A stretch of 63,584 nucleotides of DNA from an uncultured Clostridia bacterium (GTDB lineage: Bacteria > Bacillota > Clostridia > Christensenellales > Borkfalkiaceae), in the NCBI GenBank assembly GCA_944372075.1, contig CALVYJ010000131.1, positions 1-63,584 of the forward strand, in the 5' to 3' direction. The position numbers were made by a program, and so were the translations under genes. The notes under the pieces are model-generated. The model did not search any database. It saw only the letters and a list, made by a program, of their open reading frames with translations, and had not been told where the DNA came from. Within the stretch, counting starts at the first letter, position 1. Every line of letters starts with the position of its first letter. Positions 22,522-47,580 of the stretch are shown piece by piece.

Positions 22522-22553
22522 AAAAAAACCGGGCAGCTCAAAATTTGCTGCCC
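22522..22553 (-). terminator. expression-platform terminator of the ZTP riboswitch
   Basis: GGGCAGC-loop-GCTGCCC GG TTTTTTT; the 5' arm overlaps the 3' end of the aptamer. Confidence 0.85.
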
Positions 22554-22622
22554 AGGTGGTCGGCTCTGTCACTTTTCGCTCCCCCGCAGTTTATCCTCTG
22601 CAATTCCACCAGTTGCGAAAAG
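22548..22622 (-). ncRNA. ZMP/ZTP riboswitch (pfl motif)
   Basis: Minus strand TTTTCGCAACTGGTGGAA...GGGAGCGAAAA...GCCGACCACCTGGGC; P1 TTTTCGC/GCGAAAA; pseudoknot GGTGG/CCACC; directly upstream of pflB. Confidence 0.9.
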
Positions 22623-22634
22623 CCGTCGTTTATG

Positions 22635-42220: not shown

Positions 42221-43045
42221 TTACATTCCCATCCGCTGCATTAAAAATTTGCACACAGCATCCTCTTCCGAATATCCGATAATACCCGTCGCAACCTTTT
42301 TAAGCTCTTCAACGGCATTCTTCACCGCATAACTTTCGTCTGCCACCGAAAACATCGGTAAATCGTTCCATGAATCACCAAAACATACCATGGTATTAGC
42401 GTCTAATATTGTCTTCAACTCGATTGCCGCAGCACCTTTAGAGGTGCTTACAGGCATGATCTCGCACCAGTAATCCGTTTGATACGTTTCCTGTTCATAA
42501 ATGCATTTTATATCCAGGCTTTTCGAAACGGACGCATACAATCCATCCAGATCTTTTTTCGCTCCGATACATGTAAAATAAAAAATATCGTCTCCCGCCA
42601 ACGCCTCTCTGGTCGTAATCGGATGTAAACGCGCGTCTCCTCTTCTTCGATCCAAATATCGCTTCACGCCTTCCGATTCTTTTCCGACTACCCACGATAC
42701 TTTTTCAACGTAATCGTTAAACGAATATGCCAACGGCCAAACGTCATAGAAAAAAAACAATTCTTTCAGATACTGCAACTGCCCTGAATTAAAATGATTG
42801 TTGTATAGTACTTTCCGAGTCGCAGGTTCCATGATCAGCGCCCCGTTATATAAAATAACGGGCAGATTTTGCCGCAATCCCCAACATGCTTTCGCCGCTG
42901 AATTCAATGAGCGCGCCGTAGCATAGGTGAACATCAACGCCCGTTCATCAATCAACTTGTTAAGATTTTCTATGCTATATTTAGAAATCGTTTCTTTGGC
43001 TGTTAAAAGAGTACCGTCCAGGTCAGAAATAAAGAGGGTTTTCAA
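42221..43045 (-). CDS. HAD-superfamily (Cof-like) hydrolase
   Basis: SDLDGTLL, ATAR, SKG, FGDSWND; probable TTG start with SD AAGGA. Confidence 0.9.
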   Translation of the reverse strand: MKTLFISDLDGTLLTAKETISKYSIENLNKLIDERALMFTYATARSLNSAAKACWGLRQNLPVILYNGALIMEPATRKVLYNNHFNSGQLQYLKELFFFYDVWPLAYSFNDYVEKVSWVVGKESEGVKRYLDRRRGDARLHPITTREALAGDDIFYFTCIGAKKDLDGLYASVSKSLDIKCIYEQETYQTDYWCEIMPVSTSKGAAAIELKTILDANTMVCFGDSWNDLPMFSVADESYAVKNAVEELKKVATGIIGYSEEDAVCKFLMQRMGM

Positions 43046-43083
43046 GTTGCCGTCCTTTCTATTATTTATCATTTAACAGGGAA

Positions 43084-43207: not shown

Positions 43208-43876
43208 CTACTTTGACAACATAGCCTCAACGATTTCACTGCGATATCTCGAAGCCGCGCCATAGGGTCGCGGCACATCGATCGATTCCGCATCTAAATC
43301 GGCAATAATATTCCCGCCTCTCAAAATAATTGACCTATGCGACAGCATATATGCCTCTTCCACGTCGTGCGTAACAAAGATCACCGTCTTCTTTTCCTTC
43401 TTCCAAAGTTTGCAAAATACATCGATCAACCGAATTTTCAGCGCCGTATCTAAAGATGCAAAAGGTTCGTCCATCAACAAGAGTTCACTCGGGAATATAA
43501 AAGCGCGCGCAATCGAAACCCTTTGCGCTTGTCCGCCCGATAATTCAATCGGATAAGAATTTACCTTTGCTTCCAACTCCACTTCCTTGATAATTTCCGC
43601 AATTTTGGGCTCGTCTTTACATACAAGCCGCAAATTCTCTCGCACTGTAAGACAGGGTACCAATCGCGGCTGTTGAAAAATATAGGCATATTCTCTTTTT
43701 TTACTCAATTCTCCATCATAGTCCGTCAAACCCGCCAGTATATTCAACAAGGTTGTCTTTCCGCTGCCGCTTTCGCCCAATATGCACGTTATTTTTCCTT
43801 CGGCAAACGCTAAATTCAAATGTTCGTAAACGACAACATCTCCGTATCGTTTAGAAATATCCCTTAATTCAATCAT
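43208..43876 (-). CDS. ABC transporter ATP-binding protein (NitT/TauT family)
   Basis: GESGSGKT, LSGGQAQR, LLMDEPFASLD, VTHD. Confidence 0.93.
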   Translation of the reverse strand: MIELRDISKRYGDVVVYEHLNLAFAEGKITCILGESGSGKTTLLNILAGLTDYDGELSKKREYAYIFQQPRLVPCLTVRENLRLVCKDEPKIAEIIKEVELEAKVNSYPIELSGGQAQRVSIARAFIFPSELLLMDEPFASLDTALKIRLIDVFCKLWKKEKKTVIFVTHDVEEAYMLSHRSIILRGGNIIADLDAESIDVPRPYGAASRYRSEIVEAMLSK

Positions 43877-44657
43877 TTGCTCGCCTCCGCTTCTTCGAGT
43901 TTTTGCCCCTCCAACGCGCCGTCAAGAATGTCAGTCTTCCAAAAATATATTCCAGCACTCCTCCGGTAACGAGCATCATAATTGTGACGGAAAACATCTG
44001 ATCCATCCTGGAATACATTGCCGCATCATACATCATTCCGCCGATTGACCTGAATGTACCAGCCAGCACCTCCGCGGAAATCATGACTTTTAACGACAAA
44101 GACAAATTAGCTCCCATCTGCGATAATACGGCGGGCATCATCAACGGAATGTACACTTTCAGCAAACGATCACGCCTGCGAACTTTATAAACTGTAATCA
44201 TCTGCACCAGCGAAGGATCAATTTCACCATAGGCTGTTAAAAGCTGCGAATACATCAAGGGGAAAAGCATCAGAAACGTAACGTAAACAGGCGCAATGCG
44301 AGGATTCGTCCATATCAATAACATCAACGTTATCGCCATCGTAGGTAAAGTTCGCAATACACTGATAAATGGAGCTAAAAGCCGTCTGAATTTGGCGCTG
44401 AAGATGCCTATAGATACCAAACCAACCGCACATAAAAAAGCAACACCCCACGCATATAGAGTTCTTCCAAGCGTCCGTGCAAAAGCATTCCAAAATTGTA
44501 AGCTGCTTAAATTTTCCCCGATATTGATTACAACATCTTGAAACGACGGAATTATATACTCGTTTTTTACTGCAATATGCGCAAGCACCCACACGCCCCA
44601 CATTAAAACGAGGGCTACTATAGAAAAAATAAAGTTTATTCTCTTTTCACTCAACAC
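43869..44657 (-). CDS. ABC transporter permease (NitT/TauT family)
   Basis: About 6 TM; IIPS, RTLP, KVMISAEVL. Confidence 0.9.
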   Translation of the reverse strand: MLSEKRINFIFSIVALVLMWGVWVLAHIAVKNEYIIPSFQDVVINIGENLSSLQFWNAFARTLGRTLYAWGVAFLCAVGLVSIGIFSAKFRRLLAPFISVLRTLPTMAITLMLLIWTNPRIAPVYVTFLMLFPLMYSQLLTAYGEIDPSLVQMITVYKVRRRDRLLKVYIPLMMPAVLSQMGANLSLSLKVMISAEVLAGTFRSIGGMMYDAAMYSRMDQMFSVTIMMLVTGGVLEYIFGRLTFLTARWRGKNSKKRRRAND

Positions 44658-44677: not shown

Positions 44678-45709
44678 TTATGCGCTATAAAAAAACGAAT
44701 CGGCTACATTGTACTGTACATTGCTTACTCCGGAAAGTTTAGATAAAAAGGATTTTACCTCCTCTTTTGAATCAATTGCACTTTGAAAGCGAATGGCACA
44801 ATTTTCGATTACTCCTTTGGTCAGATTGGCCGTTTTGAACGTAGGTGTCGATCCTTCCGGTAAATGAGAAGCCACCGCATCCACAATCGTTGCCGGCTCC
44901 GTTGAGTCCGCCATAATCCAAGCGGCATTTTCTTCCACTGCTTGAATGAAGTCTTGGATAAACTGTTCGTTTTTCTCTGCAAAATCCGCCTTTGCAACCA
45001 AAACTGCCTGCGGATATCCTCCCTCACCGTACAACTCCTGCAAATCCCCAACTACTTCCAACGTGGCAATAGCACCCGTCTTTGTCGATACAACAGGTTC
45101 CGCAGCGACCATGTAATCAAAATTCGCTGTTCCCGTAATCATCGTTGCCGGATCCGGAATATTGATTATATTCACAACGTCATCTTTTTTTTGCGATACA
45201 TCCTCAATAATCGTATAGGCAATATCATTTTGTTCCAAAACAAGGCGCAACGTCAGACCTACCACATTGGTCAGTTGTATGCTTCCGACTACTTTCCCGA
45301 TTAACGTATCTAGATTGTCTGCCGTAAGAGGCGTTTTTTCCGTATTGGATAAAATATAAATATTGCCGTGCGTTACCGTTCCAAGCATCACATATTTCTC
45401 TCCGCTTCCTAACAATTGAGCAGCCGCATTTACCGGGATTACGCAAAGCTCCGCTTGCGGATCTTCACCGGTTACATAGGTTTGTATCGTTGTGGCCGCC
45501 ACTACATGATACCGGACGCTTCCGCTAAATTGCATTTCTTCCTTCATCAACTGCGCAAGAGCAAGCGCCGGCGCGCCATCCGGTGCATAAACATCCGCAT
45601 CCACTGCGTCCGATGCTTTCGGCTCATTATCGCACGCCCCAAACGACACCGCAACAAGACACAACATCAGTCCCAAAACAACGCATAAAAATCTTTTTAA
45701 GTTCTTCAT
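44678..45709 (-). CDS. ABC transporter substrate-binding lipoprotein (NitT/TauT/NMT1-like)
   Basis: Lipobox FGAC; PDGAP, P.NAAA, AEP, YPQAVLV; SD AGGAG before MKNLK. Confidence 0.88.
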   Translation of the reverse strand: MKNLKRFLCVVLGLMLCLVAVSFGACDNEPKASDAVDADVYAPDGAPALALAQLMKEEMQFSGSVRYHVVAATTIQTYVTGEDPQAELCVIPVNAAAQLLGSGEKYVMLGTVTHGNIYILSNTEKTPLTADNLDTLIGKVVGSIQLTNVVGLTLRLVLEQNDIAYTIIEDVSQKKDDVVNIINIPDPATMITGTANFDYMVAAEPVVSTKTGAIATLEVVGDLQELYGEGGYPQAVLVAKADFAEKNEQFIQDFIQAVEENAAWIMADSTEPATIVDAVASHLPEGSTPTFKTANLTKGVIENCAIRFQSAIDSKEEVKSFLSKLSGVSNVQYNVADSFFYSA

Positions 45710-45783: not shown

Positions 45784-46032
45784 TTAAAACTTTGAAATCA
45801 AAGTCTTTGCCGTCACCCCGTCGATCATCCCCAACTTTCCCGTTAAAGAATTGATCGTCTCTTGCGGAGCATCGACAACCACCGATAGAACCGAAATTTT
45901 CTTTGTCTTATAAGGAATCCCCATTCTGCCGACTATATATTCACTGAAATTATGCAAAACTGCATTTAATTTATCCGAGCACTCTGTATTTTCAACTATA
46001 ATACTTAAAACAGCCAACCGATTTTCAGACAT
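45784..46032 (-). CDS. TM1266-family (putative iron-only hydrogenase system regulator) ACT/NikR-C-like protein
   Basis: RLAVLSIIVE, LN..LH, IVGRMGIPY, INSLTGKLG.I.GV..KT. Confidence 0.85.
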   Translation of the reverse strand: MSENRLAVLSIIVENTECSDKLNAVLHNFSEYIVGRMGIPYKTKKISVLSVVVDAPQETINSLTGKLGMIDGVTAKTLISKF

Positions 46033-46154
46033 AAAAAACTCCCTTTTGCCCGAGCAGACCTATCGTGACAAAAAGGAGTTAATCAAATCCGATTTTGAAT
46101 TTTATAAACCTCCCTTTGCCGTCGGGACGAACCCTTCGACTCAGGCTAACATTT
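46033..46154 (-). ncRNA. structured 5' leader with terminator/antiterminator architecture (unidentified cis-regulatory RNA)
   Basis: 5' hairpin GTC-GAA-GGG-TTCGT-CCC-GAC; GGCAAAGGGAGGTT duplicates the terminator 3' arm GGCAAAAGGGAGTT; both can pair with AACTCCTTTTTGTC; U-tract abuts the ATG. Confidence 0.7.
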
Positions 46155-46160
46155 TAGATA

Positions 46161-46189
46161 ATTATACACAGTCTTAAAAAAGAAAGCAA
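46161..46189 (-). promoter_or_regulatory. sigA promoter of the TM1266-ABC operon
   Basis: TTGCTT-N17-TATAAT. Confidence 0.7.
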
Positions 46190-46563: not shown

Positions 46564-47580
46564 TTAATCGGGATAACCGTCCGGATTTTTTAATTGAAAG
46601 TTCAATGAATCTCTGCACATGTCATCCAATGTTCTTTTCGTCCGAAAACCTATCAGTTGTTCAGCCAAAGAAGGGTCGGCATAACATTCCGCAATGTCCC
46701 CTGCCCTACGAGCCGAAAATTCATAGGGAATATCTTTACCTAAAGCCTTTGAAAAGGCTTTAATAATATCCAATACACTATAACCGACCCCAGTACCTAA
46801 ATTGACGGTAAAGAGACCGCTGTTTTCAAACAATTTCTTAAGAGCACATACATGCCCTTGCGCCAAATCAACCACATGAATATAATCCCGGACGCCTGTT
46901 CCGTCATGCGTAGGATAATCGTTACCAAAAACGTGCACCTTATCTAATTTGCCTACCGCAACCTTGGTAATATAAGGACATAAATTGTTCGGTATACCAT
47001 TCGGATCTTCTCCTATCAATCCTGATTCATGCGCACCGATCGGATTAAAATACCGCAGAATCGCAACGTTAAAAGACGAATCCGCAGCACATAAATCGCG
47101 CAAGATTTCTTCGATGAACAATTTTGTTCTTCCATAAGGATTGGTCGCCGAAAGCGGAAAATCTTCACGAATCGGAACGGAAGCCGGTTTACCATACACC
47201 GTTGCTGAAGAGGAAAACACAAGATTTTTGCAGTTGTGCTTGCGCATTGCTTCCAACAACACCAACATTCCCGTTATATTATTACGGTAATATTCCAAAG
47301 GGATTTCACAACTCTCCCCAACCGCTTTTAGTCCGGCAAAGTTAATGACCGCATCGATTGAATTTTCCGAAAATACTACGTCCAAAGCCGCCGAATCTAA
47401 AATTGAATCTTTATAAAATTTTACAGGCCTGCCGACAATGGCCTCGATACGGCGCACCGCTTCCTTTTTACTATTGATCAGATTATCCAATATAATAACG
47501 TCATATCCGGCATTGATCAATTCAATACATGTGTGACTGCCAATATATCCCGCCCCGCCCGTTACCAAAATCGTTTTCAT
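46564..47580 (-). CDS. galE: UDP-glucose 4-epimerase
   Basis: TGGAGYIGSH, FSSSATVYG, YGRTK, LRYFNP, RDYIHV. Confidence 0.97.
   Translation of the reverse strand: MKTILVTGGAGYIGSHTCIELINAGYDVIILDNLINSKKEAVRRIEAIVGRPVKFYKDSILDSAALDVVFSENSIDAVINFAGLKAVGESCEIPLEYYRNNITGMLVLLEAMRKHNCKNLVFSSSATVYGKPASVPIREDFPLSATNPYGRTKLFIEEILRDLCAADSSFNVAILRYFNPIGAHESGLIGEDPNGIPNNLCPYITKVAVGKLDKVHVFGNDYPTHDGTGVRDYIHVVDLAQGHVCALKKLFENSGLFTVNLGTGVGYSVLDIIKAFSKALGKDIPYEFSARRAGDIAECYADPSLAEQLIGFRTKRTLDDMCRDSLNFQLKNPDGYPD

Follow-up and report, generated by a model that had tools for sequence, protein, structure and literature searches.

What kind of regulatory element governs a small operon coupling a gene of the TM1266 family to an ABC transporter, what reads this element, and why it precedes a transporter, are questions raised by a leader on the minus strand of the 63,584-nucleotide stretch analysed here (referred to as the window), located between galE (which ends at 46564) and an 82-aa ORF (46032–45784). 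A preliminary description had proposed either a new riboswitch class or a protein-bound attenuator possibly read by the TM1266 protein itself. The analysis presented here indicates that the leader is almost certainly a real regulatory RNA, and that it represents what is apparently a genuine, as yet uncatalogued attenuator/operator family absent from Rfam.

Anatomy of the leader and its predicted switch

The leader is preceded by a predicted sigma-A-type promoter, consisting of a –35 box (TTGCTT, 46184–46189, minus strand), matched by a TTGC box at the equivalent position in the majority of congeners, and, after a 17-nt spacer, a –10 box (TATAAT, 46161–46166), the TAT of which is invariant in 17 aligned leaders; transcription is predicted to start at approximately 46154. 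Downstream of this position, and on the same strand, are a conserved symmetric hairpin (46113–46145), a purine-rich antiterminator strand (46107–46120) which overlaps the 3′ side of the hairpin, a non-conserved spacer hairpin (46083–46100) present in both predicted folds, and a predicted intrinsic terminator (46033–46080). The purine strand 46120–46107 and the terminator 3′ arm (46050–46037) are near-copies with a common pairing partner, the terminator 5′ arm (46080–46067). The ribosome site (GGGAG, 46043–46039) sits inside the terminator 3′ arm, and the U6 tract (46038–46033) directly abuts the ATG at 46032. This arrangement, including the promoter, the antiterminator, the terminator with its buried ribosome site and the shared pairing partner, had been outlined in the preliminary description and was borne out by sequence and folding. 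Neither the leader promoter nor the leader terminator was among the calls of a simple consensus scanner, since the –35 box matches its consensus at just three of six positions, and the terminator stem is bulged, has a 9-nt loop and shares two of its tail U residues with the stem. An RNA-labelled contig covering the leader extends through the promoter and may therefore be DNA.

The antiterminator duplex between 46120–46107 and 46080–46067, which is kept as a pairing across lineages, was calculated at –12.1 kcal/mol, a value not attained in any of 100 shuffled arms. The terminator region (z=–5.14; 0 of 200 shuffles as good) and the whole leader (z=–3.07; 1 of 200) were also found to fold better than expected. 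The 5′ hairpin alone was unexceptional compared with shuffles (z=–1.36 to –1.90), and its reality therefore rests on conservation.

With the terminator 5′ arm just transcribed, –22.7 kcal/mol is predicted for the antiterminated fold and –21.1 kcal/mol for the hairpin fold; for the full leader, the corresponding values are –34.4 kcal/mol (antiterminated) and –39.2 kcal/mol (hairpin plus terminator). A U-tailed hairpin of –10 kcal/mol or better was found in 41 of 45 leaders, compared with 16 of 150 random stretches, the 45 leaders having been selected to include one copy per locus and to exclude tandem, duplicate and ribosome-site-covering cases. Furthermore, the hairpin 3′ strand was shown to prefer its own terminator arm to the median swapped arm in 26 of 30 lineage-thinned leaders, by a mean of 3.2 kcal/mol. 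The predicted folds and this swap control are those of a protein-dependent attenuator, i.e. a hairpin which is mutually exclusive with an antiterminator and is followed by an intrinsic terminator. As the hairpin 3′ strand is itself the antiterminator, stabilisation of the hairpin would, according to the folding model, very probably switch the operon OFF. At one locus (L059) and in several class-level hydG leaders, the hairpin directly covers the ribosome site.

No Rfam 15 family reached its gathering score on the leader, in agreement with the earlier view that it is not a TPP, FMN, T-box, purine, cobalamin or SAM element, and no matches were obtained in 13 homologous loci. The loose echo of the SAM clan which had been noted previously did not hold, as no SAM, TPP or FMN match was obtained on the leader at E≤10. 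The SAM-I clan is characterised by a four-way junction, a kink-turn and a conserved apical loop that forms a pseudoknot; this clan was rejected because the fold shared by the homologues is a single hairpin which does not branch, lacks a 3-nt bulge and ends in an apical loop that varies, and likenesses to SAM-I, FMN, TPP and kink-turns were dropped. The best sub-threshold match, to PyrR (RF00515; 23.6 bits versus 54), was terminator-driven, with an alignment that skips the binding loop, and a PyrR binding site was rejected based on this score and the lack of a PyrR binding-loop sequence. The single Rfam match in the window is a ZMP/ZTP riboswitch (22543–22626, minus strand; 48.8 bits versus a gathering score of 39).

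In the portion of the published literature covered by our searches, nothing was found on this leader, on TM1266 in connection with a riboswitch or on an H-cluster importer, and none of the titles and abstracts on TM1266 concerned an RNA. Word searches of the main texts of three motif catalogues (PMC11109978, PMC8632094 and PMC6429828) and of one supplement of PMC8632094 returned no hydG/hydE motif, and a word search of PMC9431212 returned no mention of the leader; the supplements of PMC11109978 (which lists 107 protein-binding candidates) and PMC5737381 may hold it.

The conserved hairpin and the genes that follow it

The hairpin was shown to consist of three short helices: P1 (CCU/AGG, 46145–46143 with 46115–46113), followed by a GA/AA loop; P2 (GUCG/CGGC, 46140–46137 with 46121–46118), followed by an AA/GA loop; and P3 (GGG/CCC, 46134–46132 with 46126–46124), capped by a variable apical loop. 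Each strand approximates CYGA-N4-AARG and the duplex is two-fold symmetric, with its two GA/AA 2×2 internal loops spaced 4 bp apart. Approximately eight positions are invariant, all of which are located in or adjoining these two loops, and the apical loop is free in length and sequence. The GUC/GAC register described previously represents a slipped form that is open to the ON state of this genome (–21.6 kcal/mol); the conserved, covarying register is GUCG/CGGC, between the two 2×2 purine loops.

TM1266 was matched in 33 of 41 related genomes, and the hairpin together with a ribosome-site-covering terminator was observed in all 15 congeners with a TM1266 protein at least 65% identical to that encoded here. 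In these congeners, the hairpin follows soon after the –10 box, and is followed by a variable spacer and the terminator. The hairpin was absent upstream of TM1266 in four congeners (proteins 50–58% identical) and in several other genomes. Among 31 descriptor-picked cores, 93.9% of cells were found to pair, with double changes in 10 of 10 pairs, while a sequence-only alignment of 21 matches from other orders (24 in-context matches minus three near-duplicates, with five coding matches excluded) exhibited 91.9% pairing and double changes in 8 of 10 pairs; slid registers in the latter alignment attained at most 49.5%. Conservation and covariation, for which the preliminary description had looked to homologous leaders, were thus both present there. 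Since the tools used to pick both sets (a descriptor or a model) favour this very fold, the percentages lean high, and independent support comes from where the model matches land. At the level of the aligned sequences, homologous hairpins covary across Clostridia and Bacteroidales.

Whole-genome searches with a model of the TM1266 leaders returned matches in 42 of 150 genomes of the order. The top 30 of these loci comprised 20 TM1266 leaders (some of which belonged to the training set of the model), four loci before hydE-hydG, one before hydF-hydE and five out of context. In the class, 31 of 150 genomes contained matches, and the 29 new loci were located before TM1266 (13), hydG (eight), an aspA-like lyase gene (two) or an ECF gene (one), or in coding sequence (five). 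Matches inside Ala/Glu/Lys-rich or other coding sequence were judged to be false (five of the top 30 order-level loci, one of which had no clear gene context, and five of the 29 class-level loci), as were weak matches within coding sequence in three further genomes (G139, G094 and G090); a match in G130 and a second one in G075 are of doubtful standing. Overall, homologues of the motif precede TM1266, hydE/F/G, an aspA-like lyase gene, this ABC transporter or an ECF S-component gene, and the TM1266 genes with such leaders are in turn followed by hydE/hydG, by a member of this ABC family, or by the gene for an ECF S-component or FecCD permease. Tandem motif copies occur in some leaders.

No second copy of the hairpin was detected in the genome under study by blastn or nhmmer; the other model match in this genome (E=0.11) lies antisense inside an HslU-like gene and was discarded. 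An exact-pattern scan of GTDB was uninformative, with 21 matches that were mostly tandem repeats and one located before TM1266-hydE, and a metagenome search yielded two motif loci, which were left out of the counts.

Several variants were also encountered. A second hairpin subtype, with a 3×3 GAU/GGA inner loop and a loop-E-like outer loop, was seen by eye upstream of TM1266, mostly in importer operons (L107, L119, L121, L140–L143, L154, L166, L168 and L169); this subtype is missed by the model (R1), the counts of which are therefore floors. In a Proteocatella MAG (L192, 1201–1232, minus strand), the motif precedes TM1266-hydE, has identical halves and pairs at two of four P2 positions. At two loci (L118 and L120), long G+C-rich leaders without the TM1266 motif or an Rfam match precede the binding-protein gene and possibly contain another regulatory element.

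TM1266, hydrogenase maturation and the probable importer

The gene labels of the operon were upheld by HMM searches. The first gene (45784–46032, minus strand, as are all genes of the operon) encodes a member of the TM1266 family (TIGR03959, 110.6 bits with a cut-off of 60.8; PF21699, 109.5 bits with a cut-off of 27), and is followed by genes for an NMT1-like ABC substrate-binding lipoprotein (44678–45709), a permease (43869–44657) and an ATPase (43208–43876). A gene for a Cof-type HAD hydrolase (42221–43072, minus strand) is located 135 nt past the ATPase gene, and was not found adjoining TM1266 in short homologous loci.

The TM1266 protein adopts the fold of the NikR metal-binding domain/ACT class, its nearest fold being that of 2y3y (Z=13.1, r.m.s.d. 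1.7, 80 residues aligned), and the family has its own structure (PDB 2NZC, four chains); its nearest folds are ligand-sensing domains. In 60 sequences, the invariant residues were R5, R36, G38 and P40, with no invariant His or Cys. The protein does not qualify as a NikR, as it is an 82-aa single domain without a DNA-binding domain and scores 21.9 bits with the NikR model, versus a required 111; six longer relatives were shown to carry only PF21699. In one operon (L133:5042–7535; G037:C25), TM1266 and a FecCD permease gene are followed by a frame of 504 aa with a second TM1266 domain at its end, and then by hydE; this locus contains a TM1266 fusion and may represent an importer of a third type.

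Where the motif was directly followed by hydG, a lyase gene or an ECF gene, TM1266 was encoded elsewhere in 10 of 11 genomes at class level and in five of six at order level. Taken alone, this co-occurrence in trans is weak, given that TM1266 is present in 29 of 30 HydG-positive genomes of the order and would be expected there in any case. The exceptions, in which a good motif precedes hydF-hydE and hydG and no TM1266 was found, are G075 (96% complete, ~240 contigs) and G249 (97% complete, ~90 contigs). These two apart, the motif co-occurs with the TM1266 gene and, by its position, would control that gene, as expected of an attenuator read by the protein it regulates.

In the Bacteroidales, TM1266 exceeded the cut-off in 37 of 121 genomes and HydG was found in 81 of 121. 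In 24 of the best 30 Bacteroidales loci, the motif overlaps the TM1266 start codon, such that the first codons (M-E-K) also supply the 3′ strand of the hairpin (L258–L287), indicative of a dual-coded operator; a second motif copy is often located upstream, and these loci have no terminator platform. Upstream of 20 hydG genes from Bacteroidales genomes without a TM1266 match, neither the motif (E≤0.01) nor a TM1266-like ORF was found, with the proviso that hydG appears to be operon-internal in about one-third of these cases, so that the leader may lie outside the stretch that was read. Weak TM1266-like matches (E 1e-6 to 1e-3) were observed within ~1 kb of hydG in many Bacteroidales (G383, G376, G362, G418, G409, G420, G424, G354, G367, G382 and G333), suggestive of a divergent ACT-like family linked to hydG.

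The ABC binding protein was found without TM1266 in 41 Clostridia genomes, and TM1266 is therefore not an obligatory carrier. No motif was found upstream of importer genes without an adjacent TM1266. In such cases, a gene of the Crp/Fnr family is often found ahead of the ABC or ECF gene, as confirmed by Pfam in six of them (L248:2735–3448, L249:4072–4788, L250:3–656, L251:3373–4068, L162:1995–2756 and L163:2076–2771), its product being a candidate DNA-binding sensor of the same signal.

The symmetric two-loop site, its free apical loop and its placement on terminators and on the TM1266 start codon would be consistent with the imprint of an oligomeric RNA-binding repressor. Judging from these sequence patterns, TM1266 probably reads the hairpin, even though we know of no RNA-binding precedent for this family.

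The genome under study (94.8% complete) contains four hydrogenase-domain genes, including a hydC-hydB-hydA set with intact H-cluster motifs, and also encodes a group B-type hydrogenase; no HydE or HydG was detected by tblastn, nor HydF over its cut-off, and HydG was found in none of 24 congeners. A draw of 151 genomes from this gut-associated order contained hydrogenase in 142, HydG in 30, the ABC binding protein in 98, the ECF S-component in 26 and TM1266 in 89. HydG was unmatched in 114 of the 142 hydrogenase-positive genomes, 106 of which were shown to encode the ABC or the ECF protein, leaving eight with neither HydG nor an importer. The two importers occurred together in a single genome of the 151, and all 89 TM1266 genomes carry HydG or an importer. 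Among 36 families with hydrogenase-positive, HydG-negative genomes, 33 contained an importer, and inside nine families the ABC and ECF proteins were found to swap between genomes. HydG was present in some members and absent from others in 13 families; in five of these the importer was more frequent among the HydG-negative members and in two among the HydG-positive members, with six ties; 14 of the 30 HydG-positive genomes retain an importer. In all of these counts, related genomes are not independent, and as most are MAGs, an absence is no proof. At five inspected loci (L244–L246, L252 and L253), both importers were found in hydrogenase operons, and in the Bacteroidales HydG was present in one of nine genomes with a strong binding-protein match, compared with 81 of 121 overall.

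The fold of the binding protein belongs to the SsuA/TauA/PqqT/ThiY class (nearest, the uncharacterised 3HN0) and names no ligand. HydE, HydF and HydG would not become dispensable through uptake of iron, tyrosine, cysteine or lipoate; as substrates upstream of these maturases cannot stand in for them, a cargo in the form of the [2Fe] unit, or of a precursor late in its assembly, is the most probable. The ABC transporter thus probably imports the iron cofactor of [FeFe]-hydrogenases, and it may well be that the H-cluster unit or a precursor is both signal and cargo. The link to this cofactor, which had been missed in the preliminary description, explains the presence of the transporter. In six genomes, the binding-protein profile was matched by two segments of a single open frame with their order exchanged, which suggests circular permutation (G101:C1:468583–469509, G041:C1:108697–109650, G060:C5:91004–91993, G064:C4:33574–34509, G066:C79:1786–2901 and G123:C3:117940–118878).

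In living cells that lack HydEFG, HydA is reported to be matured by a synthetic [2Fe] mimic, for which the authors suspect transporters (PMC6243476). A 2024 Cell paper (PMC11216029), which presents hydrogenases without maturases as a puzzle, notes a full maturase set in only five of 130 hydrogenase-encoding archaeal genomes and infers an alternative pathway.

Proposed mechanism, alternative readings and related systems

In the proposed mechanism, the 3′ strand of the protein-free hairpin would pair with the emerging terminator 5′ arm, which is predicted to allow read-through and to leave the ribosome site open. A TM1266 oligomer would clamp the two matching GA/AA loops and hold the 3′ strand within the hairpin, upon which the terminator would form and bury the ribosome site as well. 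This OFF state would probably prevail under an ample supply of the [2Fe] unit or of a late precursor. The ABC transporter would import the cofactor unit that relatives make with HydE, HydF and HydG, and the same feedback module would serve either synthesis or uptake. Taken as a whole, an OFF switch read by TM1266, fed back upon by the [2Fe] unit of the H-cluster and controlling an ABC importer of that unit, is the explanation that we consider reasonably likely.

A true riboswitch, in which a metal or small ligand connected with the supply of the H-cluster would be bound by the RNA itself, with TM1266 as a carrier or accessory, is unlikely. The aptamer/antiterminator/terminator layout with its near-equal folds, the promoter-proximal position, the tandem copies and the two genomes with a motif before hydF-hydE and hydG and no detected TM1266 would all suit such an element; the small number of invariant positions, their confinement to internal loops and the free apical loops would not. 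Moreover, in 24 of 30 loci the start codon of TM1266 itself is covered by the motif, no copy was detected ahead of hydG in the 20 TM1266-negative Bacteroidales genomes (in about one-third of which hydG appears to be operon-internal), and TM1266 is dispensable as a carrier in the 41 genomes mentioned above, a Crp/Fnr gene taking its place. A TM1266-bound attenuator is therefore favoured over a riboswitch, as the motif appears to track TM1266 rather than the regulated genes and sits on the TM1266 start codon in Bacteroidales. The uncatalogued regulatory RNA of the preliminary description stands, and of the two options given there the attenuator read by TM1266 fits better than a new riboswitch class. 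It is also rather unlikely, slightly more so than the riboswitch, that TM1266 reads the hairpin in response to something other than the finished [2Fe] unit (e.g. Fe2+, CO/cyanide adducts, a thiol or a sulfonate), or limits itself without any ligand. The SsuA/TauA/ThiY/PqqT class binds many anions and cofactors, a FecCD permease follows TM1266 at one locus (L022), and almost half of the HydG-positive genomes keep the importer, all of which would be compatible with another cargo; by established pathway knowledge, however, a cell taking up iron, tyrosine, cysteine or lipoate would still need the three maturases, and two unrelated importers replace each other and occupy hydrogenase operons.

That the element is a direct repeat in the DNA to which a transcription factor binds, with the terminator as a separate constitutive attenuator, is very improbable: the two halves do share one consensus, and are identical in the Proteocatella locus, where P2 pairs at two of four positions, but the 4-nt cores are complementary rather than alike and show many double changes, the 3′ strand covaries with the terminator arm, and TM1266 lacks a DNA-binding domain. 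That a ribosome-site-hiding terminator was joined by chance to an upstream purine-rich copy is scarcely credible, even if purine runs resembling ribosome sites readily pair with pyrimidine arms and the fold of the 5′ hairpin on its own does not surpass that of shuffles. Conservation already refutes chance, and in whole-genome searches the TM1266-leader model led independently to leaders of hydF, hydG, lyase and ECF genes, as well as to TM1266 start codons in another phylum.

The TM1266-read switch with its importer, if true, would account for active [FeFe]-hydrogenase in organisms lacking HydE, HydF and HydG through an organometallic cofactor that is acquired by cross-feeding and has importers and an attenuator class to itself. 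The importers in 106 of the 114 HydG-negative genomes, tied by a leader RNA to the maturase regulon, are named candidates for H-cluster salvage, which bears on gut hydrogen cycling and hydrogenase biotechnology. We tentatively suggest, as a possibility short of an even chance, that many gut anaerobes salvage the [2Fe] unit from neighbours via the ABC transporter or an interchangeable ECF S-component, and that TM1266 is a cofactor-sensing RNA-binding protein which, through the symmetric hairpin, shuts off either cofactor synthesis (hydEFG) or cofactor uptake. TM1266, a structural-genomics protein, hereby gains a testable job, and the motif constitutes a cis-regulatory RNA family in two phyla.

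The proposed leader scheme is most readily compared with PyrR attenuation, in which a protein-bound anti-antiterminator frees an intrinsic terminator in pyr operons and the end product switches expression OFF. In both, the regulator gene is the first of its own operon, the logic is OFF and the targets include biosynthesis and uptake genes; unlike the PyrR site, the hairpin is a symmetric duplex with double GA/AA loops, and its candidate reader is an 82-aa protein of the NikR/ACT fold rather than a phosphoribosyltransferase homologue. In LicT/BglG systems, binding to the RAT hairpin turns genes ON, as set by PTS phosphorylation. The apparent recognition by a protein dimer of two internal loops at fixed spacing, in a hairpin overlapping a terminator platform, would be common to both, whereas here hairpin stabilisation is predicted to result in OFF and the loops are symmetric 2×2 purine loops. 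As in the autogenous operators of ribosomal proteins and phage coat proteins, the hairpin of Bacteroidales and several Clostridia lies directly over a ribosome site or a start codon, and ribosomal protein S6 has the fold class of TM1266 (Z=9.7, r.m.s.d. 2.7, 79 residues aligned); in contrast to such operators, the motif also occurs in trans on hydG/hydE/hydF operons, is coupled to terminators and would respond to a metabolite. TM1266 shares its ferredoxin-like ACT fold with the metal-binding domain of NikR, yet has no ribbon-helix-helix domain and, instead of invariant His or Cys residues, the invariant Arg5 and Arg36. Finally, as in vitamin and cofactor salvage regulons, where TPP, cobalamin and FMN riboswitches control ThiXYZ-type ABC or ECF transporters, one leader element precedes biosynthesis genes as well as mutually exclusive ABC/ECF importers, the differences being that this element has no Rfam match and that the pathway is [FeFe]-hydrogenase maturation.
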